A stretch of 64,000 nucleotides of DNA from Raillietiella orientalis. Lineage: Eukaryota. Numbering within the stretch: the first letter of the stretch is position 1; every line of letters begins with the position of its first letter. A program made the translations under genes and the position numbers. Below the pieces are notes generated by a model. It had not been told where the DNA came from. It saw nothing but the letters and a program-made list of their open reading frames with translations, and did not search any database. This document shows, in pieces, positions 8,904-56,140 of this stretch. The stretch is taken from the NCBI GenBank assembly GCA_036172245.1, contig JAYWIR010000002.1, positions 7,068,001 to 7,132,000 of the forward strand, read 5' to 3'.

Positions 8904-11900
8904 CTGTGTGGGTCCTCAGGTGCGCCTTCAGGTGGGAGCTCTTGGTGTACACCTTCTTGCAGCCTTGAAACTGGCACCTGTGGATGCGCCTCTTGGCGTC
9001 CGCGGCGGCGGCGAGGTCATGGCCGAACCGCCCCCTGCCGGTGGCGGCGGACAGAGAGAGCAGGCGAGACACCTTCCTGGCCGAGGAGAGTTTCAGGACC
9101 GCCTGCGTCACCATGGAGGTCGTCTTGCTGCGGGGAGGACTAGAGGAGGGGAGGGCGGGCGACAGGGAGTGGCGGCCGCCTCCACGGTGGTGGTGGTGGT
9201 GGTGGTGATGGGGGTGGTGGTGGGAATGGTGGTGGGAGTGGTGGTGGTGGTGGTGATGATGGTGGGGGTGGTGGTGGTGGGAGTGGGGGTGGGGGTGGGG
9301 GTGATAAGCGGGGGGGGATCGCTTGACCTCCGTCTCTGGGTCGCTGTCGCTCTCGGAGAGCTTCAGCTCGCTGCCGCTGGAGGAATCCCCGCTCTTCGTC
9401 AGGGACCCCCAGGACAGCAGCGACAGCCCGGAGGCCGAGGACTTGAGGGACAGCGGACTGCCCTGAGAGGAAATCTCTTTGAAACAGTCCAAGAGGTCGA
9501 GGTCGCCGCCGGAGAGGATGACCTCGCTCGTTATCACAGTCTGAATGGAGTCACTCGGGTCACTCGGACCGATGTCGGATGGGACCGTGAAAGTGTGCCA
9601 CGGGGTATCGAGGTCGTTGGGGAGCTTCTTGTAGGACTGCAGCCGCGGCTCGTCTTTGAGGTACCTGTCCATCTCGTAGCAGGTCTGGAAGACAAACACT
9701 CCCGGGTCACACACGCACGCACGCACTCGCTGGCGGCCCCGCCCTCTTCCCCCTTCCGGCAGAGGCTGAACGCAGGAGGGGCGGGAGGACCACACCTTCC
9801 TTTCGGTCCTTTTGAGATCGTTCCTGCCTGCCAGGCTCGCTTACTCCTTCCGGCACCTGCCCCCCCCCGTTGTGTGAGTGGGAGGAGGAGGAGGAAAAGA
9901 GGCGACCTGCGCCCTCCTCCCGACAGCACACTGTGGTGATTGCGTCTCCCTCCCAGGGAAACGAGAGAAGGCGCATCTTCGGGACTGGGGGGTGGGCAGA
10001 GAGAGAAGGTTCCTCGAGGGGGGAGAGGACACTGCCGGAGGTGGTTCCGCTTCCCCCCTTCCCGCCCTCATCGCGAGCACCGTCGAGGGCGGAGATAGAA
10101 AACAGGGGGGAGCGACAAGAAGGCAGCGCCGAGGAGGGGAACCGGGACTCCCCGAGGGAGAGAGCCGGAACCCGGAAAACGGAACGGAGGAAGCGCGCGA
10201 CCGGGATCGGCGCGGAGCCGGAAGCGAGGTGGAGGCGCTCGCTCGCGGAAGCGCGAGAGCGCTCGGAAAGGAAGCGGAGGAACTGGGCGTGGGAGAAGAG
10301 GCGACGGAATCCCGCCGAGCCTGTTGGGAAGAAAACCTTCCCGTCGGGGGCAGGATGGCAAGCGAGCGCCACGCCAACCTCGCGGGCTTCCGTCGCCATC
10401 CAACCACCTTCCCTAGAAAGTCACCCCGTGGTGATTCCCCCCCCCCTCCCTGCCCCCTAAATCCCGGATCCAGGAGGCACGGAACGCGGGGCAAAGCTCG
10501 CCCGCCCCCCCTGAGGGTGCCAGCCCAGAGGTGTCGGGGGAAGGGGGGGCATGCCCCGGGGAGATCTGTCAGGACGTCCGGCAGCCGGAAGGAGTCTCGC
10601 CGCGTCCGCAGGTTGGCTACGCGCAAGGAAATGTTCCATAGGGCGCCACGCCCTACCCCCTCGCTGCCACTCTTCCCTAGGCTGAAGAGAACAGCTGGAA
10701 ACACCGATCGGAAAAAAAGCAGCCCTCAAGGGCAGAGGCTCGGCATTGGGGCAACCCGTGTCCCTCGGACGTGCATCTTCGATTCCGACGCACAGTGGCC
10801 TCCGCATCCACCGGCCGCGGTCTCACTTCGCGCCCTGCCTCTGTTGCCGGGGTGACCGGCAGGCCAGTCGGTCGGCACTCGCGCGCGAAAGCCGTTGGCG
10901 CCCTGCCGAGACTGCACCCGCAAGCAGGGAACGAGAAGTGGGGGCGGCAGTTCGGGATCTCCCCCTGGGAGCGCCCTAGATTCTTTCTCCGTTACCTCCA
11001 CCAGCAAAACAACAACAGGGGGAAAAAAAAACGTGCAGCAACCCTGGCGCGGCAACACAAGAGGATCCGGGACCCCCGGAACAGCGTTCCTGGCATGCGG
11101 GCTTCCCACTCGTGTGATTCCGAGAAACCCTCGTCCGCCAGGATGACTCACCACCTCTCTCCCTCTCTCTTTCGCCCGCGCGCGCTCCGGGCGCGGTCTC
11201 TCTCCCCCCCCCCCCTCCCTCCGCCGCTGCCGCCGCTTTCTTCTGCCGGGAAAGGGAGCGACGTCACTGCACCCGGAATCGGAAAACGCCGCTCCCTGCA
11301 ACGGAATCTTCCTCGTCGACCACCCTCTTTCCCGCATCCTCCCGAGCTGAGGGACGACGGAAGTCGTCGTCGTTGTCCCCCTTCGCAACACGCGTCGCCA
11401 TTCGCGGAAGGAGAGTGCGCTGCCTCTCCCGGGGGAGGAAGGAAAGTGAAGGAAGGCAGAAAAGAGAACATCCTCGGAGCGGCGATGGGGAGCGGGGAAG
11501 GGAGGAGGAGGACGTTCTGGACGTTTCGTCGTCGTCTGGAGCGGGGACCTCCAGTGGATCCAGCGCGATCCTTGCGCGCGTGCGCGTCGCCGAGACAGAA
11601 AGCGAAGCGGGCAAAAAGAAGAAAGGGGAGGAAAGGGGGAAGGGAGCCTTGGAATGAGGTGTGTGGGAAGAAAGGGCAACGCTTGAAGCAGACAGCCTTA
11701 CTGCACGGAGCGCGCGTGCTCCTCGACGCGAGCGCGCCGTGCGGCAAAGCGCAGAGAGAGAGGGAGAGACCAGATCGGATGAGCCACGCGCAGCACTCCG
11801 ATCGGGAGATCTTCGGCGGGGGAGGAGGAGAGACGCGATCGGAGGGCCACGGAACGGCGCCGAAAGGGTTTCTCTCGCCGTCTCCCCCCTCCCTTCTCCT

Positions 11901-27169: not shown

Positions 27170-29652
27170 TCAGCTAAGCTGCAAGATTCCTTTCACATCA
27201 TCTGGAAGGGCAGCTTGGATACGTTGTAACTGGATTTTGAGCTGTGCAATAAACTGACTACTCAAGGCTGGATCTCCTTCCCCTGCTCTAGCTAAATACC
27301 CTCTTATGCGAAGAGCTAAGTCTATAATCTCGATTTCAGGATGGGCCTGCAGCCATTTGGATATATCCTGAAGAATGATTCAAAAATGTCTTTCTCTGGT
27401 GGTACTCACTGTTGTAGCCAGAAGCTCCAGATATACCTGATGCAATTTACAGGAATTGGCATCATAACGCTGTTGGAACCAGCTGTTAAAATTTGGAGAC
27501 CGGAAAAAGCGACGATACAATCCGGTCCAATCACCTCGTATTGGAGATGTTAAGTTGGGGCCAGATGTGTCCAAGGTGGCCAGAAATTCTTTAGGATCAA
27601 AGGGATGAATCTTTGGGGGAGACTGGAGCAACAGCACAGATATACTGACATGCACACTGAGCTCTACCTTAAAAGGTTCTATATCCCTACGCAAAGGCAA
27701 AAGAGTGGAGAGATAACGTTCCAGAGGAATCATGAAGCTCTGAGTCAGTTCCAGTAAATGGCGACGAAGAAGCACTGATTGGGCTTCTGGAGGTCTCCCT
27801 GAGCATACACCCTGAAGGACTTTTTTTAGGAACACTTTGTCCTTTTGTAGGCAGGGTCTGTAAGTCGTGTGCAGACCGGGTTTATTTTCAGGAACATGGA
27901 AGAGTTCCCTACGAGATATTCTGTACTTGGCTGATGGGATGGTCAATAGTCTTCTATGTGGCCCATCTGACCTGAAGGCTGCCTGGACCGCAACTGAATA
28001 AGAGTAGGCCAACTACCCAGGGACTTTGCAAAATAAGGATTGGTGACTCCAAGGATGATATGTGGAGGCTGAGGAGAGGCTAGCTCCTGGAGATCATTAT
28101 CATGGATTGTGAAGTAAGGTCGGTACTCACAACAATAAGGCAGAGGCCAAATAAGGCTACACACACAAAAATATACATATATATATACATACATTAGTAA
28201 ACTCCTTTAACATATAAAGCTAACCTGGTGAGTGCCTGAACAAAACTAGAACAATCACTAGGTAAAGATCCAACAACCAGCATGGGCTGCCCTGTTAGCA
28301 CGAGTTCCCAGAGAATATGGATGCTTGTTATGGAGCCTTGGAGGGAGGTGAAAAGGTCCTGTTCATGCAAGGAAGGAAGATTGACAGATGATTTCGAGCA
28401 TGGAGAGGAACTCATGGAAAACAAATCAAGTGTGTCTTCTTTATCAGATACATGGGAACAAATGATCTTTCCCAAACACGGTAAATGTAGGGGTTTCCCT
28501 GGCAGAGGAGAAGGCCATCGTTCCATTTCTTGGTAGAAAGCCTCCAAAGATAACAATCCACCTTCAAAATAAGCCAATGCTACAAGGCGCACGATATGTG
28601 TAAACAGGTTGTAAAAGGGATAATGGGTGAGCAGCACTACGGACTGATGAAAAGGATTTCGAGATCCATTTGCTATGGCATGTCAACTAACCTTCTGGAA
28701 GTAGCCTCTTTTATGGAACGAGTCCTTTTTTTGTCGAAAGAAGACAAATCCAACAAGAAAATTCGTGTCTATTTTTAGCCATGGAGAAGCAAGATTATTA
28801 TATGCAGCAATCCCTAAGTGAGTATCTCCACTAATGTGGCGAACACGGAAATGATATTGCATATCCCCAATACATCCTGAGTTGGAATCAGGGAATGCCA
28901 AATAGCAAACATTAGCTTGCTCTTTCTCAGATAACTTCTTTGTCGATGGAACTTGATGCTGCAACACATTATTAGGAAAAACATGTAGTGAAAATAAAAT
29001 CGTACACGATGCTTAAGATAAAATTGCTTAGGGGCACTGGAATGCTAAATACTTTAACTACATTCCTTCAATTCCATCAAAGTCTAACGCATAGGATTTT
29101 GCAATTGGCCATAAAATGTTCAATAGTTTTGATGGTACATTTCAATACTTCATTTTGAATTCACGTCAATGAATGCCTTATTGTAGGCCTTACTCTTTTA
29201 TTTGTACATAACTAGAAACATTTTGACATTAATGGTGCACACAATTAAATGTGACCAATATTCAGCAAAAATCTGACTGATATTTGATCCCTTTTTCAAC
29301 CAAAAAAGTTATAACTCCAGACTACAAACGCATGTTTGCAAATCATGAAACAATGAAAGTCTTTTAATTATTTCACGAAAGGAGCCATTTGCCATTTGTC
29401 GCTATGCTTTTGTCAAAAAAAACTACTACGCAGAATAAATCAAGTTAACATGGCAGAATTAGATCAATTCACGTCCCGCAAAAAATTGGATTTTTTGGAA
29501 AGCAATAGGCATATACTCACTTCCAAAACCTGTCCTATTTCTACGTCAAAACCAACTACACATATACTGTGTATCCATTCACAGGCTGTAACTGGCAACA
29601 AATCGAGGGTATTCGGAACGACTTTTTGCATGTCATCCTCACCTTCGATCAT
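27170..29652 (-). CDS. DENND6: DENN domain-containing protein 6 (FAM116; Rab GEF)
   Basis: Seven phase-consistent GT-AG exons: 29652-29521, 28958-28692, 28643-28225, 28156-27972, 27930-27668, 27622-27410 and 27367-27170. Diagnostic motifs include WIHSICVVGFDVEIGQ, VCYLAFPDSNSG, FFRQKKD...RGYFQKSVV, LWELVLTGQP, YRPYFTIHD, ILGVTNPYF, LRRHLLELTQSFMIPLERY and GDWTGLYRRFFRSPNF. Confidence 0.95.
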
Positions 29653-32600
29653 TGGGATAGAAAAAATCGTCAACAAGAAAGAAAAATGTTCGACTCTGAT
29701 TTTTCAGCGAGGGCCCATCCATAACTTGACTTTCACATTTTCCTCGCTTCCGCTCGGTTGCTCCCTCGCGAGCCACCCACCCACTCAGCTTGCCTCGCTC
29801 GTTTGAAGCAGCAAGATGCCCAGATCACACCTGCGCGCGGCAAAGACCGACCGTCGTTCCCTAATCACCAAAGTGCCTCCAAGTTTCACAAGAGTCGAAA
29901 TGATTCCTTCACACGATCATTCGCATCATGCACAGCTGCACAATTCGTAATAATACATATGTAGTTTTGTCAAAATGACGAACCTGATAGCTAAAAATTT
30001 CAATTCCAGAGTTTAGATGGATTCAAGGAGTCTGACTTCATCGCACACCCTATACAATGCCCTATACAACCCCACATCAGCAAAAGGGACCGAAATTAAC
30101 GTGATATCGGTAAAAACCTGATAACACCCCCGGTTTTGTGATGAGTCCTACTTTTCCATACTGTTGGTTGCCCCTTGAAAATTTTTCCCAGTTTAATCCA
30201 TGTTCTTGGTTTGTTCTGCTTTCTAATTAGTAAGTGGAATCACGTCCCTTAACCCTGGGTGGAAACGATAACCATCCATGTTCACGTGAGGACTCACATA
30301 TATGCAATCTGGGCCCAACTGCTGCTCATTGATGTACGAGTGACGTTCGTTCCAGGGACTTGGGAAAAGGAGTTTGTGGTATAGCAGAGTGATTATGATC
30401 AGATAAGCAAATAAACACTCGGTTATCAGGAATCTGAATCCATAAATGATTACATACTCAATTCTTTGTTAATTTCTCTTTCTAGTCTTACAAGAACAAT
30501 CGCAAATCAGTGTTAAAATTTACATGTATAAGTAAAGAGATTTCATCTCAATTTCTACTTTCATTTCCAAATACTTTTCTTTAGAATTCGAACACATACA
30601 CAATGTCCATACTTTAGATCATGATGAACATAAAAATCACTAAGGTGGTTTTCAAAATGGACATTCAGACATTTTTTTGAACACAATCAAAGTGCTTGAA
30701 AGTCCTAGTAACGATATCGTACTACTAATCCTGTTCCTAAGATTTCACCAGATATATCAGTCATCAATATCACCTTTTTCGCAAACATCGCATTAAAAAA
30801 AAAAGCCAAATCGGTCTGACTTTGGAAACCGAATGAATTTTATATGCAAATATTTATGTCACTTTGGACTGGGAAGCCATGGAGATTTTTCATTAACCCA
30901 AAACTTTTGAATCAGTCTTCTGAAATCTTTGAAACGTTTCCATAATGATATATGACCATGAGGCAAAATCCGTCAGATATCCTTAAAAATCCTTACTTAT
31001 CTATCGTAAGAAAATAAATTTTTTACCCCAAGTAGAACTGCAGATAATAGCACGCATTATATTTAGCAAAACTAAAACAGAAAGGCAAATAAGAAAAAAA
31101 ATATTCCATTTTCAGTTGCAGGAAATGTTGCAAACTGCTCTACACATCTGTAAACATATTCTTGCAAGTCTTCTGTGGGAAGGTGTCAGTTCAGGATGAA
31201 CCTGGTAGGATCTTCCAATAAATCTTTTGCTAAGTTTATTTAGCTCAAGGAAATCTCTATGGCTCTCCGTGTGGAATTTGACACTTACCACGTCTTATGA
31301 ACCATAAAGCAAATCGGTCTCCAGTGAGAAGAGTTAAAGAAGTATGTGATCTAATATAAAAAAAAACATCACACCTAGGAAGCTCTAGCACGATCAGTTA
31401 AGGTCGCCTAGGGAAATCATCACTTTGCTGGAAAAAACAAGGAAGCAAAAAGTAGCACGTTTCAAAATGCGTTCCGAATTTCTGGTATACCCTCAGATGT
31501 TGAGCGCATTACTCAATTTCAGTTAACGTAACAAAGATTTTATGTAGCAGCAACGCTTTTATTTATACATTTTTAGTATCCTGTTTTTATATAATGTGCG
31601 CTTGCAAGCATGATTTTCAATGCAAACATAACTATCTAAATGATCGGGCTACTTTCATTACAAAGAGATTTTTTTAATTCCGGTAATCACCTTAGTACAA
31701 ATGAGGGAAGTGTGAAATAATGAGCTCTTGAAATGATTTATACATTTAATGGCGTATATTCAATTTAGTTCTGCGCAATTTATGTAATTTTCATCTAGAA
31801 ATAAGTTGCCAAGAGAACAGAATGCTGTGGGTTTGGGTTTTGGAGCTTCCAGATTTGGGGGTTTCCTCAACATGCACCCAAAACATAGACTGCATCGAAT
31901 CTTGTTGGTGTGTGAGACATAGCAAGTGTCACGAGTCCACAGATAATCCCAACTCAATCCATCTAATTAGTTCACTATAATGAGATGTCATATATGAGTG
32001 AGGAGGGATTTATTTATAAACTTTCACTTCACTTCATCAGTATAGTCATCCGTGGTGTAAAGCATTCGTTTTACGAAAAAGCCCTCAGTTGCAAACAAGA
32101 AAAAATCATCTCTACCTGTTTGCCTAAGCAAATTTCATTTGTCGCCATTGCTTTTCCATTTCTTGTCGATAACAGACAAATGTAGCATGAAGACTAACAT
32201 ATACTCAGAAAGGACCGATTAAAGGTTCTTTAAACGACCATATTTGGTCAGTGGTGTTGTTGAGAAGAGATTTGGAAATAGTTGTACTTTTCTAGTGTGC
32301 TTGTACCCATTCAATGCAGAATAAACTGACTTCTTTATCCTTTCATGATATGGGTGCGTATCACCTCGTTTGAAAGGTTTCAATACTAGTGGTTTCATTT
32401 TGAACGATTATTTTTCATTGAGGTCCTATTAAGATATGCACATTTTCCAAGGAAAACTTAATTATCTTTATTTTGTTTATTTTAGTATTTTTATTTGTCA
32501 ATTTAAACTTATAATTCATATCCTTGATGCTTTCTGTTCAACTGTGCCTATTTGCATTACATTTACACTTAATTATCTATTATGCTGTCATTTTCGAATC

Positions 32601-33343
32601 AAATCTTTCATCTTATTCATTATCAGGAACAGGAGAAGTTCATGACCTTATTGTGGAAATTTTATTTAATTTGCATGCCTGCCAACTCTCATTTATGGAA
32701 GCTCTTCTTTTTTCGTGTCAAATCTTGTTTCCTTATTTAAAAAAATTGATCTAAATGTGAAACACATACAGTAGTAAGAAATTCAAATTTTAGTGTGAAT
32801 GTGAGAGTTCACTTATCCGAAGAAACAAGCAACCTAATCAAGTTTAGTTTTTGATGTTTTTTGCAAATACGAGTTTTAGACTAGCAATTTGTGCGTTAAC
32901 CCTGCTTTTGAATGCGGAACATGCGACTTCGCCTGTTGATGTAGGGGCCTTGAACGAAATGAGCTTTATGGTAGAAAATTGACGGTTCTCTAGTGTTCAT
33001 AAAAGCGTCTAAAAACTCACGTGTTCACATATTTTAAAATTTAAAGCACTGTTTAAAGTTTTGTTGGCTTGAGGGACGTATTCCTTAGCTATGGTGTCAG
33101 AATACTAAATCCATAAATTAATCAACTGTTCATACGAAAGTTGCGTCAAGTGTGTAATTGAATGCCACTACCCTTCAATGGAACGATAAAGATGCTTGAT
33201 CTCTTTCAATTTTGGTTTCCAGCACATTCTAAAGCTTAACTTGACTGATTCTTTGAAGTGGTTGTACTCGTTGCATATGCATGAATTAATAAAAATAGTT
33301 ATTTCTCAAAGTTTTCTTGTAATTTTCCACTTTTTAGTTGTAT

Positions 33344-34969
33344 ATGATGTTTGAGGAAAAGGATTTCAGCACCGAATATCTATTATGCCATGGTAAATAT
33401 TTAATTAAAGAAATAGAAAAATTGAATTATCCAGGGTCACAGAAATTGTTGAATGCAATTAAATCCGAAGTACAGTTTTTGCATAAGGTATCTTGGTTTC
33501 CACTCAAACTCATTTGATGTCATATTTTTAAAGTATAGGCAAATCAGAGTGATGTTAAAGAGGTGGCATGCTCAAATTTGTATCATCTCTCAACCGTATT
33601 TAATTACTTGAGTGATTTGAAGCACATAACAGAGATATTTGCAGTATTCATAACTCCGAAAGGTCTAAAAATTAAAGTCGATGTTGTTAGTAGTGATGGA
33701 ACAGAATGGAACAAAGTAATATGCCGCAATCCAAGAGCATTACATTTGGAATGCGCAGGTAAACCACAAGAATTATACTTTATCTTTTTATTTCAAACAA
33801 AATGCTTCATCCTGTCAATTTTGGATGTAATTCAACTAAAAGCTAATTAACTATATTTTGCATGGCCTAATTCGCACACTGCAATTGTGGGATTTATATA
33901 TTAAAAAAAAATGCTTTGTATCTAAATTTGTCTTTTATTGCAATAGGAAAGGCAGCATTTGGAAGGCGCACTCTTCTAGATCAGGCTGCCGACTTCCTCG
34001 AATGCAGTAAATCTCATCCTTGCTTATTTGTATTGCCCAGAGTAAGAAAAAAAAGTTTTCATTTGTAAATAATTTTTTTCATGATGCTCATATGACTACA
34101 TCTGGTTGTTTTCAAATTAGGTTGTTTTCCATTTTCCTGTTGGTGTGACAAAAAGTCTGGCAGAGCACCTACAAATGCTTGGAATACACATTATGGGGTG
34201 CCAGCTTGATGAATCCTCTCTCCAGCTTGAGAATCTTGATGAAAATATTGATGACGAAGCTCCTATACTTTATAATCCATGTTCCCCCTTTTCTTCTCGG
34301 GTATTGATTAAAAAGGACTTAAATCTGGATATCTGCTCCATGCTGGCCTATGTCAGTGCTCTGACAAATGGCTATGCCCATCTTACTTACAAGCATGCTG
34401 TTCTTGATCAACAAGCACAGCTGGAAAGGCAAACTCCCCTCAAACCACTGTTGGATGAATTGTTCCAAGGTATTGTTAGCTGAAAGTTAGTGTTCTTAGT
34501 AAAAAGTGTATTTTAGGACGCCAGTTATTTTGTTGCCAGACAGCTTATCAGGATTTCAAGTCAATTGTTTATGTAATTGGTGGAGAACAAGAGAGAAAAC
34601 GAGCAGACGCACTTTTGAAGAATGTCACAGTATTGCCAGATGCATATTCCCCAGCAGTCAGCTCATTAACACTCAAAGGAAATGTTAAAAAGCGTTCTCT
34701 GACTATTTTTGGTACTGGAGATTATTATCATTTAGTAACTGTGAGTGCCAATGGTAGCTTTGTGAGAGCTGCTGCTAGTCAGGTATGTTACTGCTGTTTT
34801 GGTCCTGATAACCATGTTTTAGAGAGTGCATTTTGCTGTTTTTTTGCATCAATCCAGAGCATTGGCTGAAGCAAAGCTGCCACCTGCAGTCCAGATGGAT
34901 TTTAATGAAGCTGGTATTTCTCAAGCACACCATAATTCTTGTAATAGCAATTATGAAGAAGATTTTTAA
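33344..34969 (+). CDS. C7orf25: UPF0415 protein, C7orf25 homolog (DUF1308 family)
   Basis: Six phase-consistent exons: 33344-33487, 33539-33758, 33947-34041, 34121-34469, 34517-34782 and 34823-34969. Motifs include CSNLYHL, VDVVSSDGTEWNKVI.RNPRAL, LNLDICSMLAYVSALTNG, IGGEQERKRA, IFGTGD, TVSANGSFVRAA and FLHQSRALAE. Confidence 0.93.
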
Positions 34970-37900
34970 GAAAAATGGTATTTGGCGTTGTATAGTTGTA
35001 TGCAGTTGCAGAGATATATAGCATTTTCGTTGGCTATTTTAATCAGAAGGTAATGTTAAATGTCTCAAGTTGTGCATTGTGGATAGCATAATGGTCTCTG
35101 TTAGGTTCTTGGAAAGGAATGATTTGGCAGGTTTGCAGTGTTTTTCTCGCACATCTTTTTTATAAAGTACAGTACACTAAACCTGTGCATCCACTATGTG
35201 ATACTGCCATGTGTGTCCTGGACTCTTATATTTGAAAGGATATTGTCAAAACATGATTAAGGGCGTTTATATTTATCAGCATCATGTCTGTCTGTGCTAT
35301 GCACGTATGCATTCTGGTACATAGCATGGTATTCTCATCATTGATGGTTGAATGCACACTTTGACATCATGCAGGTTTTATACTTTGTAGCACCGTCAAA
35401 GACTAGGCTTTAATTTCATACTAGGAGTCAGATTTGCAATTGCCTTCTGTGTGATTTTGGACTGCCAAAAACAGAGAAAACGTAAAAAGGAATTGACATC
35501 ATAGATGACAGTTCAGGTGACCAAATCCAACATTCTCGTAAAATGAATACAGAACTATCGTTGTTACTTGCATGTTCACAATGTAGATGAAGGCTTCTAG
35601 CATGCACAGCATGCATGATGTCTGCAGCAAGTTTATTAAAGCGTCGTTCTGTAAGCTGTTTTTATTAATGCGTCAAATACAAAGATTAGGTTTTCCGACC
35701 TCACCTGCTGGTGCTCGCGCGAAGTTCCCTTCCACCCCTGCATACTTTATTGCTTTGGATTTGTGGATGTTATAAAATGTGTCCTGGAAGCCTAATTTTG
35801 GGGTTGCACGTTTCTTATTGGATCGGTTTCTTTAATCTTGAGGAAACATGAGGAATCTTGGGAACAGTTTCATGAATGATGATAAAAGAACATATCCATT
35901 CCTTTTCTGCCCTCCAACCAGTACGGCTCTTTGTAATTTTCTAACATTCTCATCCTTCACTGGGGTTTAAAAACTACCATTGCGTAATCTTCGCCACGGT
36001 ATTCGCATGCAAAAGACGCCTTAACATTTGTGTGTTTAGATTGCAACATTTTTGTTTGGTTTCGACGAAATAGCTGGAATTTTTTACTGGGAAGCTGCAT
36101 ATTTGGGTTGGTTCGTTTTGACGATGCAAATCGCTGCACATGGGGGACTCGAGCAGCAAAAAAATGTGTGCGATTGAAAAGGAAGCTGTTATTCTGAAGA
36201 GTATTGATCGGGCCCATTTTATCTTGCTTTCTAACTGGACTGTTTTTATAATTTCTTTCACGATATCAGGTATTGGTTTTATTTTGAAGCTACAACATGT
36301 GTGCGGGCCCAGCCCATGCTTCAGGGTTGTTCCATCGATAATCAAAGGCATTTGTTGAATTCCGGGAAAGCACATTTGCACGCAATTAGGGAATGATATC
36401 TACTTGAGGATTTCTGGTTAACTTCAAGGGAAAAAAAAACTCCCGCAGGATTCACGTGAAGATAACCGAAATTCAGAATGTCCAATGCAATCAAAGGGAA
36501 GGAAGTCGAAATTTACCATTCAAAGAAACTGCAAAGTGGTTAACCGTTCTGACTGAAAGATGTATGAACCATCGACCATAGCAAATAAGTAAAAATCGGA
36601 GAGACGAAACGAATGTACTTGTATGTGTAAACGGTGGAATTTCTATAAAAAAAAAAAAAAACTTAGGCATATCAAAAGGCAAATTACCGCCGTAAAAAGG
36701 TGAATCAGTCCTTACAGATTATGTTGCAAAGTGAGAGAGGTGGGAGTCTTGACAAAATTTTCGTTATTCCTTGTCGGTTCTGTTTAGCAAGTGCCTGCAC
36801 ACCCAAATTAATTTGGGTGCCTCATGCCGCAGTCGGTGTCTATCTAGTCAGATAACTGTCAGTGGTCCTTCTAATATGCCCTTTTACAACATAAGTCGTT
36901 TCGAGGAAACCGCGGATTACCGACAGCTCTCGCACTTCTGCCTCACCCAGAGGTTCGATTGCAGTGAGAAGAATTCCACCACATATGGTCGCAACAACAT
37001 TCGTCCCTTTCCCATGTTCTCAAGGTTTTTCCACCACAGCTGCTTTCCACTGCCAAGATTTCCATAAATGTTTTTTTCTTTTCCTCCATTTCTCTCGACA
37101 GTCTTTGAGGATCCCTTTTACGGCACTCTGTGGCTGTTACGGAATTGATGAATAGCAATAGGAAGAGTTGCACAGGAGAGAACTTTCAGGTGCAAAGCAT
37201 GAAAGATGAAAAGTAACGTATTCTGCTCATTCGGGGCAGCATGGAGTAAATTCACAAACATTGTGACATCCCTGCAAAGTTTCTCCATGCTGGCGTGAAC
37301 ACGTGTTCCATGCTGCAAGTATGGACAGGAGAGAGTGGTATGAGAATCACCAGTGTCGAAAGTTTCAACAGTTTTTTTTTTTTTTTAAAAAAAAAAAAAG
37401 CAGCGAATTTTTATGGAAATTTCGTGATTTCACTTCGTTGAAGATTGGCGTGGCAAACATTTTGGAAAGAAAAAAAAGAAAGAAAAACGGTTTCTTAATG
37501 ACAGTGGAAGTCGCAGTTGCAAAAGAAAGAAAGACGGAAATTGGATTGTTTGAACAAAAGCATATTTTCTTGAGGAACTGCCAACTCTGGAAGGTTTTCA
37601 ACTCCATTTGCGTGGCCACTCGCGTCCTGAATCGGAATGTTCCTGTTTTCCATGCTCAGGAAAACAATTCGTGCTTGTGAATACCATCTCCCGAAGGAAA
37701 AGCCTCGACATCTCTATAGAAATATGGAATGGGATTACATTATGTGATTCAACATGTTTGTAAAATGGAGGGAAGCTCGAGATGTCTTTGTAGATAAAAT
37801 GACAGTTTCGAGCAACGTCCACTGCAAAGAAAGACAGAGAAACGTGTTGAACCGCTTTCAGCTCTTTTGCATGGTTGAGTTTGCGTTTGAACTTTTACCG

Positions 37901-40900
37901 TCGCAAATGAACAACCTGGGCATTTTAAGATAAAAGTATTGTGAAGTCTTTTATCAGCAAAAAAATACCATCTGTTCTTCCTGTTTTTGTTCTTTTCCCT
38001 TCAGTACCTTCAGAATTTCAAGTAACGTGCGATCATAATTAGTCTTTTGAAAATCAAGGAATTCACTAATGTGTACATGTACCATGGTTTCGCAAGTGTG
38101 TGAGTGTGTGTGTTTTGCATTTTCTTTGAAGATCGATCAAATCTTCAGAATTTTGCACATTCGTCTTTACCTGCTTGATCTTCAGCTTCTCAGTCCCGAT
38201 ATTCCTGCCGCTTATCGAGTTTTCGAACGGAAGTCTTTCTGACGAATATATGGAATCTGCAGATCCTTCGTGCTACCCGCCTTGCCTCTGTGCTATGCGA
38301 TGGTCATTCATTTCAAAATGTTAATCTTCCGTCAGCATCTGTTGACTTGTTGTATGCAGGCGCTGAACACATTGCACACTGGAAATTCGGCAACTGACTA
38401 TTAGGTTTTTTGTGGGACGAGGAGGTGACGAATTGTCAGTCCCAGTGCAGAACTCCAGTTTCCCCCCTGTCTAGAACTTTTTCACGGCAAGCAAGCTACT
38501 ATTTTGATAGCCAGTGCTAGGGAAAGCTTCGCGGAAATTACGTTCCTTGAAATTGCGCTGATTATACTGCATTTTAGTTGCACTGCTTGAAAATCCACAA
38601 TGCGCACTACACGAGCGAAAATGTACTTATGCTGGATAGCTTTCCTTGACTGCTGAACAGGAAATTCCTCAGCTTCCACAGTTAATGAAAATCACATCTC
38701 AGAGGGAATTGTTTCACGTTTTCTTTTGCTAACATTCTGTGGAGGTAAAATGCGAACATGAATTGGTACCCGACAATGAATGGGTAAGGAAACCTACTAT
38801 CGCATTCCGAACATCGTTTGCACGTTCCGCTACAGGGAAGGAATTTCTTCCGTCTTTCGTTGGCACATTTCCGAACAGAAATGTCAGCAAGTGGCGTGAA
38901 AGATGCTCTTTGTCACTCTGAAAGCTTCATGTGTTAGGACCACAGCAGTTCCTCTCTATGCCTGCTCTCCACTTGGCCCAGTGGCATCTTCATCTAACGG
39001 CAAAATCGTATTCAATCATCTGACCCGGCGTTTTCATTCGTAGGATGTCACCGTCCGCATCCATCAGTCTTGCAGACCGTCATCGCGATCATCTCTACCA
39101 TTATTACTTATCCGATCTTTCTTAAGACGGATCACAGCGAGCTTCAAATTGCTGCTCCTTCCCCCCTCGCTACCGTCGTCCTTGTCTTCTGTGACTCCAA
39201 CGGATGCTGATGAAGCAGCCATCCGACTCTGCTGCTAAGGGAAACAGCAGCATTCTGGAAGCAGTTGGGTGCTGTCTCAGGCTGCCTTGGCTGATCCGCT
39301 TTCGTCGTGTGCTGATCGTCTTCTCTTTGAAACTCTGACGCTGTCGGCGTGTTGGTAGCCCGAGGCCATCGTTTATTCTCAGCTTTGCTTTCTTCCAAGA
39401 CGCTTAGGGCTTCCGATCATCCTCTCGTCTTTCTCACTCACACCCGGTCATGAATACCGGAGCTCGAAGAGACGAGCCTAGCCCGCAGCCGCAGGACGTC
39501 ACACTAGTCGGATACCCTGAGGGAAACCGTACTCGATAGTCTTTTAGAAGCTCGCCCTGTGCGTTGGTGCTCTCAGGCTCACAGCGCTTTCCACCTGCTC
39601 GTCTGCTATGACTCCATCGATTTACAGAAGGGTCCGCCCATAGAGCGATGCTCTGCTGTGCCAGCAGGGCGGTTAAGAGACGCTCAGGTTTGCAGACGAC
39701 GGGGGAGGAAAGGACGAAGAGCATTGGAAGGAGACGGAGGCACCGGAGAAGAAGAGTTTCGTCATTCTTGGGCCACGGTGGTCGTAACTTGTACCACCCA
39801 CCATGGCATGTTCCATGAGGTCCGCGATGACCTCTACAGGTTCGAGGCCATCGCGGACGAGAGAAAGGGGAGCTTGCTCCTCTTGGGAAGGACATTCTTC
39901 CTCATCCACCATCCCGGAGCTTTTCTTCTTCTTCCCCTTCGGGGATGACGTTCGTCGTTCCAGGTTCACTTGGCTGAGAAGGTTTTCTTCATTAGAAGGA
40001 TACCTCCCCCCCACCCCTTTCCGATCCTCCAGTCCTCCCTTGAAGGGAAATGCTTTCCTTTCTGGAAATGAGCTCTTTTTTCCCTGGGAGAAGTCGACAA
40101 ATCCAGTTTGGCGAGCCTATTTGTAGGTTCCGGTGAGGTGAGGAGGGAGCGGCTGTTCTTTGATTGGATGTGAGTTAGCACTACTCGGCCGTCGGATTCA
40201 TCCCCGCTACGTTCGTAGCTTTTCTTTTACTTCCGGTTCCCTAAACCGGACGTCTCGAGGACCAGCCCAAGCTCATCGCTGGGCGGGTCTCCCAGCGCTA
40301 GCAAAGACTTCCGCTTTCCTTCGGCTGGCGCGTGCAGGAGGGGGAATGGCGGGCGAACCTTCAAGCGCAAACCTCTGATGCCCTTGACGCGTCAAGTCCA
40401 CCTTGCAGATTCCGAAGGAGCAGCCCGGCGAAGACCGTTTTCCGCGGGCTCCAGCACGGAGATCTGATCGCAAGAGGCGTGGGTAACGCCGAATGCGCGG
40501 GTCTACCCATTACCTGAGAGGAAGAGTTTTCTCTTCCTTTCACCCTTCTCCTGCAGAGGCTGAGGAAGGCGGCGTGGATTGCAGTGGCAGGGAGGTGAAT
40601 GGGGTAGAGGAGCAAAGATCTTCCGCGGGTGTTCCAGCGGAGCCTTCCTCGAGGCGAGGTCTCAAGCGGTCTTCAGGTGCGCGACGGCAGGACCGGAACA
40701 TTCCAATTTCGAGAGCGAGATCCGCCATACCAGGGCGAGAGGTCCGTGTCAGGACGGCGCCTCGGATGGCGCCTTTGGTTAGCAGCAGTTGAGCATCTCG
40801 TCCGAAAGCGAACCCCTGCAAGAACGGTCAGTTTTCGCGGAAAAGGCAGCGCCGGACCAAAAAGGCGGAAGACGCTTGGAGCCCGGTTGGCGCTCATCTC

Positions 40901-43900
40901 ATTTGCGAAGGCCACACCACGCCGCAGGAAATCTGGGAGCTCTCCGGCGGCTCCAGCGAAGTTCAGTTGACGAACGGCGCCGCCGCGGGCTGGGACTTGT
41001 CGTTCTTCGTGCTGGGACCCCTGCACCAAGAGTTTTCGGATGCTCCGCGGAGGGGTCACCTTGGGAGCGCGCTCAGAAATGGGTGACTCCCCTTGAACCG
41101 CGGCCGAAGTCTCCTCCCAGGCAGGCAGGTGGAAGCAGGCAAGTCGTCCGGCAGCCGCCGCCGCCGCCTGACTGGCTTGTCTCCGCGCCGCCTTTGCGGT
41201 GCGAGAGAGCGAGCGAGCGTGCGCGTCGTCTGCGCGTGGCCTCGCGAACCCCTGCGGCACCGCGGTTTCGCCTCCGCGCGCCTTTCCTTGCCTTCTTGGA
41301 AGGCGCGGCGTCCCCCCCCCCCCCCCTCCCCAGAGTCGCTCACCGTTCGGCCCCACGTTCAGGTGGGAACGTCCTCGGGAGCGGGAGCACCCGGGAGCGG
41401 CGAGAGGAATACGCCTTCCATCCCGCCTTGGCAGCGGTGCCGGCGGCCAGGAAAGCGGGCAGAGCCTCGGGCAAGAGAGCGCTTCATTTTCGTGGCGTCA
41501 TAGGTGCTGCGGCGTTATGACGGAAGGCTCACCGTTGACCTGACGGACTCCCGGCGACGGGGTAAGCGCGGAGAGGAAGGCCCCTGTGGCCTGTGTGGCG
41601 AAGATGGAGGGAGTTTCCCTGCGATCCGTGGTTCTCCTCAAGAGGCGGCGCTGCCCGGGAATAGGGAGAGCTCCCTCGGAGGGAGTCGGGCGGAGCAGCT
41701 TCAATAGAAGGAAGGAGGGCCGCTGAGTCGCCTGCGCGAGCGGCGGTCCCTGCTACCCGAGGAAACCTCTAGGCGGGAGCACCGTATTGCCTCCCATTTT
41801 TACTCAGACAGGTTGATGGGGGACGGGCAGCCTCTGCTGAGGTCGTTGCTGTCCCCCTCCATCCCCTTCCAAAGTAGAAAAAAAAAAAAAAATACTTGGA
41901 AGACGACCTCTGAAAGCGGTCCTTCGCTTGGGGGTGCGAGGACGGCGGTCCGGGACTGTGCGCGGGCAGCCGCGCCCCCAGGTGAGAGGACAGGATCCTG
42001 CTCCTCCTTCGCCGACAGGAAAGGAGCGACCCTCTCCCCTCCCCCCCTTCCTTGGCGAAAGGGGTGGGAGGAAGAACAGGCGGGGACGGAGCGGAGAGTT
42101 GGTGAGGGCCTCCGGAAGCACCTGCCCCTGTGCTGGAGAGCCGGGAAGGACCCTTCTCGGTTGAATAGCCTCCGGTGGTGACACAAGAGGTGGCTGCGGC
42201 CCCGATTGGCGGTAGCGTCTCCCTCCATCTACCCCAGTGCCCGCACTCCCGCGCGGCCCCCTCTGGAGAGGAAAAGCCAGGTGGGAAGAGGGCAATATCG
42301 AGGTGCATTCGCTCGGTCCAGGATGGAGTAGGGTGGGGTGGGGGAAGACGGTCCCAGAAGAGTTGCCAGCCGGCTCTACCGAGAGGGGGTTTCCTCCTTG
42401 CCCTCCTTCCCGGCGGTTGGGTTTTCCCGAAGGACGTCTCTCCCTCGCTCCCCTCTCCCTGCGACCCGTGGTCTCCCGGGCGACGGGCGGCTACTCTCCC
42501 AGGTTGCCCCCTTCCCTCCCTTGGTACCTGGCGGCCGGGATCCTTGCTCGGGGCGAGGGAAGGGGGGCGCTTCCTCCCGGAAGGGCGTGTTCTCGGGAGC
42601 GGCGACGCGTTCCCCAGTTTCGCCTCCCCATTCCTATCCGTCTCAATCATGGATTCAAAGCGTTACGAGATACTTGAAGGGCGCCGCTACAGCGCCACTG
42701 GGACCGCGAGCGTTGCTGGCGCGTCCTGGAGATCCTGCCGTTAAGAGTCTCTCTCCCTCCGGGAGGGAGGGGGCGTTACCCCTCTCGAGAGCCCCGGTCC
42801 TCTTCCCGGAGGCTGACGATCCTCCGCGTGACGAGGGGGAATCCTCTCCGACACGTCGGGGGACGAGCGAGAGGTCCTGGGACTGCTGCGCGCTTCCTGG
42901 CGGCGGCCGCTTCCCGTTCGACCGCCCTCCTTCCGCGCGCGCGCCTGTGTGGAGGCCGCCCTGGCCGGCGCCGGCGCCACCGCGGACTGCGACTGAGGCG
43001 GCTCCTTGGGGAGGCGCACAGCGGAGGGGGAGACTGCGGGGACGAAGAGGGGGAAACGAGGGGGGGGGGAGGAAGGGGAGGAGGGAGAGTGGAAGCTGCC
43101 GCTGCGAAGTCGGGAAGTCGGGAGCAGACGCGTGGCTCCCCTGGCACTGGGCCGCCGTTCTTCGGCCGGCGGAACGCTGTTGGGCGGGCTCTCCCGACAG
43201 GGCGCCCGCCTGAGGACCCGCCCGAAGCGCAGCTTCCCCTTCCCATTTGGGGAGCCCCACGCTGGTACTGCGCCAGCGCGGTCGGTCGGGGAAAGGTCAA
43301 CCGCCCGCGCACCTTCGTCTCCTTGAGGACACAGCCTGCGTCGCCACGGAGTTGGAACCGAACCCTCCTCGCGGGGCGACTGCGGGGCTCCTTTCGCATC
43401 CCAAGGGCATCTCGGGCCTACCCGACCGGGTGGCAGAGAGCCCCTCGTTTCCACGGGGCATCCCCCGTGGAAACCACTGCCGGCCGGAAGCGAATGTCAC
43501 GAAGGATGCCTGAGGCGACCTTGGGATAACGAGAGGTGAGGGAAGGAGATGCCACGAAAAAGGGTGGTGCCACCCCAACGTCGAGGAGGCTGGAAAATTC
43601 TCCTGCAGCTTGGACCACACTGCCGCCGCTACGTAAATCCGTGCCATCCCCAAAAGAGTGGATTTCGTGCACAGAACACGTAGGCACACACAAAAGACTA
43701 CGTAAAACGTAACCATGCTTTGCCCCCCAGCGAAATGCCCTTCTGGTAACGGCGCGCCGCTCGTGGATTCACGGGTATTACTATTTACGAATTTATTTAT
43801 TATTTACAGAATCTATTTATTTACGACAAATGCTTTAAAGTAAACGCAGACGGGGAGGCGGAATTGTCTTCCGGCCTGCCGAAGTGCTGCTGGTCGGCAC

Positions 43901-44508
43901 GGTGGTCGTTCATTCCTTGGACCTTTTTTTTTTTTTTTTTTTTTTTTTGGCTTTTTGTCTGCACAGCACGAGACGGCAGGCATCCGAGAGCCTGAAATTT
44001 TTGTTGTGTCCACCATCGTCCATACGGGCAGTTCGAGCACAACGCAGAAAAAAACAACAGAAAAAAAGAAAAAAGAGAAACAAAAAATAAAAATTGTTTT
44101 TTTTCCCCTCTCTCCTCCAGCTCGCGCACCTCTTGCTCCTCAAGATACGCAGCGTCCCCCGTGGCTGCGAATTCCGTCTTTGTTCCACCTCCTGACCCCA
44201 TCCTTCCCCACCAACCCAGCTTCCCTTTACAATGTACGCGGCTACCAGATGCTGGAAACCGAATTCACTTTCGGAGACTTTTGTCTTCCGAGAAAATCAA
44301 TGTGTATCACGCATGAGACATGTGATCGCTGGCTATTTCCGACGGGTTCTGGTGTGATCGTATCGATTCGCTCCCTCTGGCTAAACGGCTAACGAAAAAT
44401 TGCGTAGTATCACAGTACCACACCACTAGACGAGGCTCGCGTTGCGCGAAGATTTCGTTCGTTGCTGTGATACGGGAGTCGCGCGATTCGTCCCCACACA
44501 CGGGCAAC

Positions 44509-51700: not shown

Positions 51701-52514
51701 TCATGGCCATCCTTCCCTCTGATGTGCTTGCACACAAAAACCATCGGTACAGCGAGATTCCATGTACATGCATGTATGCATGCCATCGATTTCTACACGC
51801 CGGCTGTTTTATCGATTGCGAGGGCAAAAAAGGAAAAGAAAGAAGGAAAAAGAAAAAAAGAAGAGGAGGGGGGGGGGGAGAGAGGAGGAACAAAGAAACC
51901 TTCGCGGAAGGCTCGGTGTCGAGGTCTGAGCTATGCGGAAACGCAGTGGTGTTGCTCCAATTCGCGTGACAGCGGCAGTCCAAAGTTAAACGGTCATGCC
52001 CAGCAGACTCACAGCGCATGATTGAAATTCGTCCAGACTGTACTGAGGCTCGAATCCGGTAGTTTGCAGGGCACGAGAGACCAAAACCACGGTTTCTACG
52101 CCGTACATGTACGCAGACACTGACTGACTGAGAGCTGGTTAATCGGCCGTTGAACATTACGGAGACGACTGGGCACACTTTGCATGCAACTTGGAATGCA
52201 TTTAGTCCTTACATTCCCAACAGATCAATTCATGATTCATTAGAAATTGGCGTTTCAAACACATATGCATCATGTCATTTGTTAGGAAGCAGCCGTCTTT
52301 CTCATAGGAGACACAATTAGTGCATCAGCAAACTTATGTTTCCTATAATATGCCAGGACGTGCAAGTGGCTGGCCCTGCACACTTAACTTTCAGGATTAA
52401 TGGAAAACATGTCGTCACCGGCACCGAGTAATTTGTCCTTCCAACGTGATCAATCCATTTCACAATTTATTTCTCGGAAACTCAAGGTCTGGATGTGCGT
52501 ACGTAAATTGATTT

Positions 52515-55500
52515 CTAATGATATTTATCAATCTTAGAGGACACTGTTTGGGCATCTGGTCTGATTAAATAAACTGCCAGTCTTTGTAATACAGTTAGGA
52601 AAAAGGCTGTTGACATCACTATAACGTAATGGCTTACGGTGAGACCAATCTCCAACCAACTTCCTTCCGTACGGATCAAGAAAAAAAACTCCAATGCCAT
52701 AATGTCTGAGAAGAACAAGATTATCATGAAAATACCACTCAGGTTGAGAGAGATTCTTTGTGCCAGCACTTCACAAGCAGATGCTACCACAATAAATGGG
52801 ATAAAAATTTTAATGAGGAGGAGAATCGCCATTGTGAATGGAGAAAAAACTGTAACAAAATGCAGAACTGTAACAGGATCAAAACTGTTGATGCTGGGAA
52901 TATTTCCTGTTGCAAAAAAACTGAAAAAAATTACGAACATCTTACAAGCATTAAGAAATTTACGTCAGGCAAGAGATACACGAAAAAGGATACGTAATTA
53001 AATCCCTGAAAAACAAGTTTGCTATTTCCTTCCTTCTTTCTTTTTGTTGTGAACATATTACTGAACATCATGTGGTATAAATCGGATTCTGAACCCAGCC
53101 AATCAGATTTCCTTGATGCACATTCCATTTTAATCCAAAGTGAGAGATGCAATGACAGTAAAAGTAAAAAAATTGGTTCATAACTCAGACTTAATAACAA
53201 ATAAGGAGGGAAGAAACATGCAACGCAGAAATAAAATTTTTCTGTGCATTCACAAGACACAATCCAGGGAACAATGACAGATGTCACTAACAAAATAGTT
53301 AGCACACGAAAATTACAATCTCAGCACACTTACATAGAAGCATCCACGAAAAGAAGTGTTCCATTTGTACTGGTATCCAGCCTTGTATTATGAGAAAGGC
53401 AAGCATATTAGCTGCTGCTGCCCATGCCCACATCCAACTCCATTTAGCATTTAACATTAAATCTCTAGAAAATTGCATATGCTAAATGTGAGCTTTCCTT
53501 ATACCCACCTTGCTAGTTTGCAGATAAGACCACTTATAACAAAAAAAGCAGCACCAAATCTACTCTCCTTCATTAAAATACATACAATAGCTCATCAACT
53601 CACACCAAGGATGGATAAATCCAAGTGCCAATAACCGGGAGTAAAGGGAAAATGCTTAGAATAAGACAAGATGCTATCCAAATCGGGTCAGTGGCATAGT
53701 TCTGGAAACTTGGATAAAAAACCAAGAAACTCATAAGTAAGGATAGCGTCCATCGGTAAGAAAATGCTAAGACCTAAAGCACTGTCCTGAAAACTTGCAA
53801 CAGTACAGCTTACTTACCAAAATCTGCACCCCAGATAAGCAAATTGCCAAGGCTATTAGTGACTGCTTCACTGTAGGCCAACACCTGGTCCAGTTGTTAT
53901 GCAAAATGGTTTGCTTCCAGAAGCAGACAGTTATAACCCAAAGTAACACTGGAAGCAAGTAACAAACGTAACTCCACATTTTTGCATGCTGGACTGAGAA
54001 GAAAATTAGTGGAACTGATGGCTGAGGTACTTACAATACAATAGCCCCCAAATGAGAATAACAATAAAGGTGATTAACACTGAACTGGCTACTGAGATAC
54101 GTTTGTTGTCCTTTTTATGAACGTGAATGTGGCTAAGACTTGCATCAAGAATGTTCAAACCCAGATAGCCAATCCATGCTAAGAAAGCCAATGAAGTGGA
54201 AACCAGCTGGAAAGGATGCTGGTAGTTCAGATAATATAGGCGTCCTTGTTTAGCTAAATCACATAATAATTGGCTTTGCTGCATCTATTCACTGCCAAAG
54301 TCATCAACTGAAACCTTCTGATTCACTCACAGCTTTCCTGTATTGTTTCTCGGCTATGAGCTGTTGTATCTGCTCAATTTCATGCTTCAGTTGTTCAGAT
54401 GTTGGAACATGCGCAAAAAAGAATGCATTAAACAAATGCTGCTTCCAATCCATCTCCAGTTGCTCATACTGTTTCAACAACTGCATTGCATTGCTTAGCA
54501 TAGCTGTGGCTTTATGTAGTTCAGAGCTAGACAGGAGAGACAAGGGAAGTATACCCTAAAAACAAATGAAAAGATGTCTTTATGGAAGCAGCCTACATAC
54601 TAGAGAATTTGTAGGAATGGGAACACCCAACAAAGATGAGAAGAAAGGAGCAACATCTACTTGATTAATATGCAACATGTCTGCCACAGTTGAGGTAGGC
54701 TGGCTTTCAGGAAACTGAGAAATCTGAATACCAGCACCCCATGCAATAAATGGGTTATCGGTTTCATCTGGGCTTCCAGCCCCATGTGACCCTAATTTTC
54801 ATTTTGAGTTGTCCATATACATGGATTCCCACTTACCCCAATTTGTCATTCCGTGATCAGCAGTAAGAATATATGATGTCTTTTTGTCATATCGGTAAAA
54901 TTCTTCGATAATTTCATAAACAGATTGAACTCCTTTATCAACTGCTTTGATGCCATTCCAATATTCTCTAAATAATTCTTACTACACTTTGATTTCCAGC
55001 TCCCTTTAATTCATACATAGAAAATGGTTTCTTTATGTGTCCCAGAGTGTCCATAGATAACAAGTGAAGGAAGAATGCTATGCCATTCTGATGCAGCTTC
55101 TGAAAAAGCTCGTCATCTTGATGTGCTGACTTGAAAAAGTGAAGGACTTTATCAAAAACCCAAGTATCCAATTGTGTGGGGTTTGGATCAGCAAAATCAA
55201 TGAATTTCTGATCATAGAAGTCCATAAAAATATGAGAGTTCAAAACCCCTAAAACCATTTGATTAAACAAACTTTGAACTTAAAACATTTTGTACCCAAA
55301 CTCAGAAATTTATAAAAATAAGGCACACAAGATTGCACAGATGTATAACTACAATGAAACATTTTTGCTACTTGCATTAATCATTACAACATAAAATGGG
55401 TGTAGATGTAACTCTATGATTGAATCATTGTGTGCTAAAATGCCTTTCTTTTTCCTAAAAGAAAATGACAATAATGCAAATATGTTTGTGACATGGTCAT

Positions 55501-56140
55501 AAAATATTATAGCAGTTTTAACATATATGATAGGTTTTGCTATCTTTAAGCTGTTGTCACTACTGTGAAAATCAAATATATAGACGCAAAGAACATAAAA
55601 ACAGAAAACTCAAGAGTCCAAATCAAAGAAATATATACTAATATGACACCTGGAGAAAATATCTGCAGTATCTCTGGACTGCCCCAGGCCCATGTAAATT
55701 TACTCTGATTAAAAACGGAGTCGAATTCTATTGGATTGTGCTTCCATCCCCTAGCTATAGCAGCAGGATCTTCTGGCACTCCAGCTAATAAGGCTACATG
55801 ACCTGGTCGAGATTCCGTGGGTACACTACTGTGGCAAACACGGTGGGCCCCGAGGTGACTTATGTTCCTGAAATTCCGGATCGAATGAATATATGGAAAA
55901 AAATGAACGCCTCAACTTTAGGAATGATGCATGATTGGATTCATTTCCAATATAATTATAGAAATGATCCATCCGCAATCCATCTGCCACCATGAACACA
56001 ACTCTTGATGAAGGTGCATCTTGTATCATGTCGTTTGCTGGTAACCCTGGGATGATGGGTGACTTAAAGTAAATTTCGAAGGTAATGAGAAAAAACAGGA
56101 TGTGCAAGGTCAAGGTCCACAGTTCCACGGAAACTCTCAT
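52515..56140 (-). CDS. PIGN: GPI ethanolamine phosphate transferase 1
   Basis: Thirteen phase-consistent exons: 56140-55917, 55867-55650, 55248-55017, 54967-54837, 54791-54601, 54555-54331, 54284-54035, 53993-53818, 53773-53604, 53559-53509, 53464-53334, 53286-52994 and 52940-52515. Motifs include [77 protein letters not shown] and EGSWLEIG. Minus-strand AATAAA lies at 52471-52466. Confidence 0.96.
52941..52993 (-). other. U12-type (minor spliceosome) GT-AG intron, 53 nt, last intron of PIGN
   Basis: The intron reads GTATCCTTTttcgtgtatctcttgcctgacgtaaaTTTCTTAATgcttgtaAG. It has a full U12 5' consensus and a U12-like branch site with As at -12/-11. Its removal is needed to join FQGFNY to MFVIFF in frame. 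Confidence 0.85.

Follow-up and report, generated by a model that had tools for sequence, protein, structure and literature searches.

The last intron of the PIGN gene, on the minus strand of the 64,000-nucleotide stretch of DNA analysed here (the window), spans positions 52993–52941 and is probably a U12-type GT-AG intron, orthologous to the minor intron catalogued in vertebrate PIGN. The U12-type reading draws on the sequence signals and on three further observations: the reading frame stays open, the position of the intron is conserved, and the spliced product agrees with homologous proteins. The intron is probably a retained ortholog that represents, in compact form, an intron type already known, and not a novelty.

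The PIGN gene, which encodes GPI ethanolamine phosphate transferase 1, was delineated by tblastn and protein-to-genome alignment and occupies positions 56140–52515 of the minus strand, from the ATG at 56140 to the stop codon TAG at 52517–52515. The model contains 12 introns and encodes 905 amino acids in an open spliced frame with one terminal stop. It was built with our own protein-to-genome dynamic programme, using the proteins of Tubulanus (P0002), Pongo (P0083), and Xenopus (P0061) as guides, and the junction 53508–53465 was set by eye after the guide alignment. Ten of the 11 introns other than the last are 41–49 nt long and one is 401 nt; nine have G at position +5, and all 11 have a YAG 3′ end. 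The human gene has 27 coding introns (28 coding exons). At least two of the other introns in the window match human exon boundaries exactly (341/342 and 417/418; here and below, a slash marks a junction), and a third is located at codon 148. The gene is unplaced in a 24-row PIGN tree calculated with a quick method, in which it has the longest branch; the lineage is probably an animal one.

The penultimate coding exon (53286–52994) terminates with the residues KLVFQGFNY at 52994 in phase 0. The last exon (52940–52515) is composed of coding positions 52940–52518 and the stop codon, and carries the motif FFATGN at 52919–52902. It matches PIGN proteins (PF04987) with an E-value of about 3e-30 and an identity of at most 54–56%, which is the best protein identity anywhere. 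A metagenome scan with the last exon as a query returned 269 pattern matches, none of which was confirmed, and a protein search with the read-through open reading frame 53320–52934 gave 381 candidates, none of which scored. A DUF1308 exon used as a query gave a single match, to a plant, at 38%.

The sequence of the last intron, read on the minus strand from 52993 to 52941, is GTATCCTTTTTCGTGTATCTCTTGCCTGACGTAAATTTCTTAATGCTTGTAAG. It is 53 nt long, interrupts the frame in phase 0, and was delimited by the Xenopus-guided alignment (model A). Introns of the U12 type have the 5′ splice site consensus RTATCCTTT at positions +1 to +9 and a TCCTTRAY-like branch site, with the branch adenosine roughly 10–15 nt from the 3′ junction. 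The 5′ splice site of the last intron, GTATCCTTT at 52993–52985, agrees with the U12-type consensus in nine of nine positions, whereas the other 11 PIGN introns match it in two to six. Given the base composition of the gene, this 9-mer would be encountered with a probability of about 9e-6 per position. Near the 3′ end of the intron, the branch-site-like sequence TTCTTAAT (52957–52950) agrees with TCCTTAAC in six of eight positions, with both mismatches being C to T. The two adenosines of the sequence TTTCTTAAT, 52952 and 52951, are at distances of 11 and 10 nt from the 3′ junction, and either of them is a candidate for the branch point, which gives a distance of about 42 nt from the 5′ splice site. 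None of the other 11 PIGN introns contains a TCCTTAAC-like motif with at least six of eight matches located 8–15 nt from its 3′ end. The 10 nt that separate the adenosines from the junction, TGCTTGTAAG, do not form a pyrimidine tract, and the termini of the intron are GT-AG. The initial annotation had called the intron minor because of its 5′ splice site, the branch motif close to the 3′ end, and the missing polypyrimidine tract, and all of these features are borne out by the present analysis. It also described the intron as the only one with this signature among about 30, which holds for the 12 PIGN introns that were checked individually.

The 3′ splice site AAG (52943–52941) contains the first AG after the branch motif and the only AG in the intron, and was selected by all three guide alignments. 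Position −3 of the intron is A, while it is C or T in all of the other 11 PIGN introns. This AAG end and the match of the branch motif in six of eight positions only count against the U12-type reading. The composite pattern GTATCCTT-N20-50-TYCTTRAY-N6-13-AG occurs once in the window, at the last PIGN intron, and in none of 100 shuffled sequences. The shorter motif RTATCCTT is found five times on the two strands of the window, compared with 2.1 expected occurrences, and at least five times in 6 of 100 shuffles. The other four occurrences were rejected as introns, since they are not located at recognisable exon ends, as judged from the translation of 45 nt upstream only. U12-type signals were scored as counts of matches to the consensus, and U2-type signals with a small position weight matrix (PWM) derived from the 11 other PIGN introns. 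As a U2-type site, the donor at 52993 has C at +5 and a score of −0.9. By contrast, when each real PIGN donor is left out of the matrix in turn, nine of the 11 score 3.8 to 7.7, and the remaining two 0.6 and −6.2.

In the proposed mechanism, U11 would pair with GTATCCTTT at the 5′ end of the intron, and U12 with TTCTTAAT, in which both deviations from TCCTTAAC are C-to-T changes that would leave G-U pairing possible if U12 is conserved. Splicing would then use the first AG, which follows the bulged adenosine at a distance of 10 nt, as the 3′ splice site and join the residues GFNY to the last exon. From these signals we infer that the sites are used in RNA, that removal of the intron depends on the minor spliceosome, and that the organism possesses the corresponding machinery (U11, U12, U4atac, and U6atac). 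A search of the 64-kb window with Rfam models detected no minor snRNA at the gathering score or with an E-value up to 1, which says nothing about the genome; the gathering score was reached by one tRNA only.

The position of the intron can be compared with that in PIGN genes from metagenomes. A metagenome scan combined with an alignment of C-terminal PIGN fragments provided 80 PIGN loci. In 74 of them the reading frame continues uninterrupted across the site, mostly with the fungal-type sequence LLQSAFFSTGN, and two were left unclassified. The remaining four loci (L002, L020, L036, and L040), which represent three eukaryotes, have an intron at exactly the same place, in phase 0 and seven codons before FFGTGN; L036 and L040 are identical in the displayed context. 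The exon ends of the four loci, FRRAWFH/ (L002), FFRAWLY/ (L020), and VRSALFF/, align without gaps to FQGFNY/, with which the penultimate exon of the window gene terminates in model A. The introns of these loci all begin with GTAAGT, a U2-type 5′ splice site, which counts against the U12-type reading. They are about 100 nt (L002 and L036) and about 390 nt (L020) long, whereas the intron in the window has U12-type signals and 53 nt. The presence of an intron at the same site in four metagenome loci marks this position as ancient, with an intron class that differs between lineages. If the ancestral intron was of the U12 type, the GTAAGT introns would be class-converted versions of it.

The survey of Olthof 2019 (PMC6717393, supplementary files 1 and 8; Minor Intron Database, MIDB) includes PIGN among the genes with minor introns, with one such intron each in mouse and human. 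The 5′ splice sites are CTA/GTATCCTTT in mouse and CTT/GTATCCTTT in human, in agreement with the U12-type consensus used here, and they are accompanied by the branch motifs ATTTCCTTAACT and ATTTCCTTGACT, respectively. The intron is located at chr18:62085265-62088755 of hg38 (3491 nt) and chr1:105554500-105557462 of mm10 (2963 nt). According to the available part of the report on the mouse mutant gonzo (PMC3507239), exons 23 and 24 of PIGN are skipped, which shifts the frame and removes the last 170 of 931 residues. It follows that exon 23 of mouse PIGN begins at codon 762. The intron affected in gonzo would be the PIGN minor intron, since the description of the mutation, as far as the available part of the report gives it, is compatible with a T-to-A substitution at position +4 of GTATCC; the term U12 does not occur in that text. 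In human PIGN, an exon starts at c.2427 (PMC7652820, available part), exon 12 corresponds to c.964-1023, and exon 29 ends at c.2619 (PMC11122441, available part). The two-exon offset of the mouse numbering relative to NM_176787.5, together with the exon start at c.2427, identifies the two skipped exons as c.2284-2426, as far as these partial sources go. This segment is 143 nt long and its loss therefore causes a frameshift.

Taken together, the four papers, three of them available in part, would confine the PIGN minor intron of mouse and human to codons 762–809, after a leucine codon. Within this interval, a phase-0 CTT or CTA codon leaves only L779, L781, L790, or L794 before the junction. 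One of these four candidate junctions, L790/V791 (FFL/VFFLVTAFFGTGN, FFL/VFF), is the same site as that of the intron in the window and in the four metagenome loci. Positional orthology with the vertebrate PIGN minor intron is likely, for a junction that is deduced rather than read from an annotation. With the offset between hg19 and hg38 that we take to apply, the minor intron listed in MIDB is located 3′ of human exon 23, which is consistent with the deduced interval. The hg19 position of this exon was taken from PMC13628969. A comparison of 18 primate and other PIGN isoforms yielded nine exon boundaries, none of which is near codon 790; PIGN is not included in the supplements of the intronIC papers PMC7367187 and PMC10639083; and a literature search found no direct statement of the vertebrate junction. 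The initial annotation had placed the vertebrate PIGN minor intron directly upstream of the FF.TGN motif, which fits both the listing of Olthof 2019 and the interval of codons 762–809, the latter within the limits of its partly available sources.

Three in-frame splice choices exist within 73 nt at the end of the gene: 52993–52941 (model A), 52981–52941 (model C), and 52979–52921 (model B). The initial annotation was silent on the latter two, which are both of the U2 type. The guide alignments have the acceptor at 52941 in common, and differ in the donor, which is 52993 with Xenopus, 52981 with Tubulanus, and 53014 with Pongo. The donor at 53014, which would create a 74-nt intron, was rejected because it removes residues that align with the exon ends of other species, and because GTTTTT is implausible as a donor. 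A profile HMM built from 112 homolog segments gives the spliced products 77.5 bits for model C, 72.5 for A, and 61.4 for B. The U2-type PWM scores of the donor and acceptor are 4.6 and 4.3 for model B, 0.7 and 2.3 for C, and −0.9 and 2.3 for A. That three guides produce three donors, that the HMM favours model C over A, and that model B is best on U2-type signals alone all count against the U12-type reading. However, model A is the worst U2-type substrate of the three, as is expected of a U12-type site. At the level of the predicted products, protein homology favours the AAG acceptor, disfavours model B, and cannot separate model A from C.

In model C, the major spliceosome would remove a 41-nt phase-0 intron 52981–52941 (GTGTAT...AAG, with the donor at 52981–52976), and GTATCCTTTTTC would be coding sequence for Val-Ser-Phe-Phe. 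The resemblance of this segment to a U12-type site would then be a chance match, or an exonised relic of a U12-type 5′ splice site left after a switch to a cryptic donor 12 nt downstream. The choice of the Tubulanus-guided alignment, the length of 41 nt, which is within the range of 41–49 nt of ten of the other 11 PIGN introns, and an acceptor at the same conserved position as in model A are in its favour, and its lead of 5 bits over model A in the HMM comparison is explained by the placement of VSFF on the conserved “a-l-f-f” columns. However, this gain brings an extra insertion in a loop of variable length, and the exon ends of L002 and L020 (AWFH/ and AWLY/) are better matched by GFNY/ than by VSFF/. 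The donor is weak for a U2-type site, with A at +5 and a score below those of nine of the 11 real donors. Model C also requires that a perfect, phase-0 U12-type 5′ splice site is present 12 nt upstream of the donor by coincidence, at the low per-position probability given above, or that it is a very recent relic. It is therefore considered unlikely.

Model B consists of a U2-type intron 52979–52921 of 59 nt in phase 2 (GTATCT...TTTTTTTCAG), removed by the major spliceosome. Its spliced product is in frame and open, its U2-type signals are the strongest of the three models, and its acceptor has the longest run of T of any 3′ splice site in PIGN. Codons for Ile-Phe-Phe-Ser account for this T run. 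The 20 nt that would be skipped encode MFVIFFS, which matches LFFVFVS and LFFIFMS of other species. The HMM score of model B is 11 bits lower than that of A and 16 lower than that of C, and the model requires a two-residue deletion in the conserved stretch before FFGTGN. None of the three guide alignments selected its acceptor, and the intron is shifted off the position shared by L002, L020, and L036/L040. Model B is thus very unlikely.

It is highly improbable that the junctions are those of model A with the intron being removed by the major spliceosome, in an organism which has lost the minor one and in which the U12-like signals are an undecayed remnant: the long branch of this PIGN and its loss of many introns (12 compared with 27 in human) are the profile that the available part of Larue & Roy 2023 (PMC10639083) describes for animal lineages without minor splicing, which counts against the U12-type reading, and TTAAT is suited to a generic U2-type branch site, with branch-to-3′ distances of about 12 nt in other introns of the gene (for example, CTAAC in 53333–53287); however, an unselected nine-of-nine 5′ splice site, accompanied by a branch motif with wobble-preserving changes only, is not expected to persist, and the donor at 52993 has a negative score as a U2-type site.

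The alternatives are kept at low probability because a perfect 9-mer at the orthologous junction can hardly be accounted for unless selection has continued to act on it, and the U12-type intron 52993–52941 is the preferred reading. The animal lineages without minor splicing are nematodes, myxozoans, oikopleurids, and tardigrades, which are fast-evolving and intron-poor, and the loss of minor introns has been extreme but incomplete in bdelloid rotifers, springtails, mites, and flies (Larue & Roy 2023, PMC10639083, available part). It is moderately probable that the window contains a working 53-nt minor-spliceosome intron, with about 42 nt between the 5′ splice site and the branch adenosine, in a fast-evolving and intron-poor animal-like lineage with introns of 41–49 nt, and that it has persisted at the vertebrate PIGN site, whereas it was converted or lost in other lineages. 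In that case, the intron would be among the shortest metazoan U12-type introns, and the lineage would have compacted its introns while retaining minor splicing. If confirmed, the intron would show that the minor spliceosome is still required by an organism in which introns are strongly compacted and many have been lost, and would provide a natural example of recognition by U11/U12 over about 42 nt in an animal-type gene. One ancient position would then be represented in three states: U12-type in vertebrates and in the window, U2-type in three eukaryotes, with no intron in most fungi and several animals. Such a comparison is useful for studying the conversion and loss of minor introns. General knowledge of minor introns is unchanged, as PIGN is already catalogued and Blastocystis provides examples of shorter minor introns.

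The intron had initially been described as unusually short for a minor intron, which is overstated, since the minor introns of Blastocystis are on average just under 42 bp long (PMC10639083, available part). The same part of that study reports that the lengths of minor and major introns scale together across species, with a Spearman coefficient of 0.90 for medians. The literature search found no figure for the shortest minor intron of an animal. The minor introns of Blastocystis resemble the candidate U12-type intron in the window in belonging to a genome in which all introns are very short. However, Blastocystis is a stramenopile, and 77% of its minor introns are AT-AC, according to the same source, whereas the intron described here is GT-AG, 53 nt long, and located in a PIGN gene that appears to be of animal type. 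Another counterpart is the PIGN minor intron of mouse and human: it is located in the same gene, has GT-AG termini and the identical nine 5′ bases GTATCCTTT, and shares its type of branch motif with AATTTCTTAATG of the window. It also apparently occupies the same codon position, in phase 0 and seven codons before FFGTGN. By contrast, the intron in the window is 53 nt long (human, 3491 nt; mouse, 2963 nt), has two C-to-T changes in the branch motif, an AAG 3′ end, and a tyrosine rather than a leucine codon before the intron, and its use by the minor spliceosome is predicted from the signals in its DNA.

The GTATC motif that forms the 5′ site of the last PIGN intron is followed 14 nt downstream by a second one, GTATCTCTT (positions 52971–52979, minus strand), which matches the U12 5′ site at seven of nine positions. 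The best U2-like acceptor in PIGN, TTTTTTTCAG (52921–52930, minus strand), is located 20 nt into the last exon, and its use together with the GTATCTCTT donor would result in an alternative intron that is in frame. Intron 2 of PIGN (55249–55649, minus strand) has a GC content of 28% and is an outlier in the gene, with a length of 401 nt compared with 41–53 nt for the other introns considered.

The GC content of the window is strongly mosaic, with the segments 1–27000 and 40000–44000 differing from 28000–36000 and 52000–56000. Blocks with 58–66% GC contain long open reading frames in all six frames, and none of the 33 long open reading frames tested from the two GC-rich blocks had a Pfam match. 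The recognisable genes sit in islands with 36–38% GC. Pfam searches of open reading frames identified a clear DUF1308 gene divided between two adjacent open reading frames (34121–34866, plus strand; E-values 2e-15 and 2e-29), the exon search of which returned a single match, to a distant plant protein, and a weak DENN-domain match below the Pfam cut-off (28197–28682, minus strand; E-value 3e-4). The Rfam gathering score was reached in the whole window only by a tRNA gene (15262–15333, plus strand; 70 bits) within a GC-rich block. Many unrelated miRNA models matched a GA-rich, hairpin-like stretch at about 13850–13960 weakly, below threshold. The repeats include 6.5 tandem copies of a 41-nt unit with 98% identity (1193–1458) and a (GGT)39 run (9186–9303). 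Outside PIGN, the U12-like motif GTATCCTTC (39995–40003, minus strand) lies in GC-rich DNA, preceded by GAG and followed after 30 nt by CTCAG; no recognisable gene was seen around it.

Among 80 metagenome PIGN loci, the position of the last PIGN intron is occupied by a GTAAGT intron in three eukaryotes (L002, L020, and L036/L040, the last two sharing the same displayed context), and 74 loci, largely of fungal type, lack an intron there. Therefore, a single position occurs in three states: candidate U12-type, U2-type, and intron-less.
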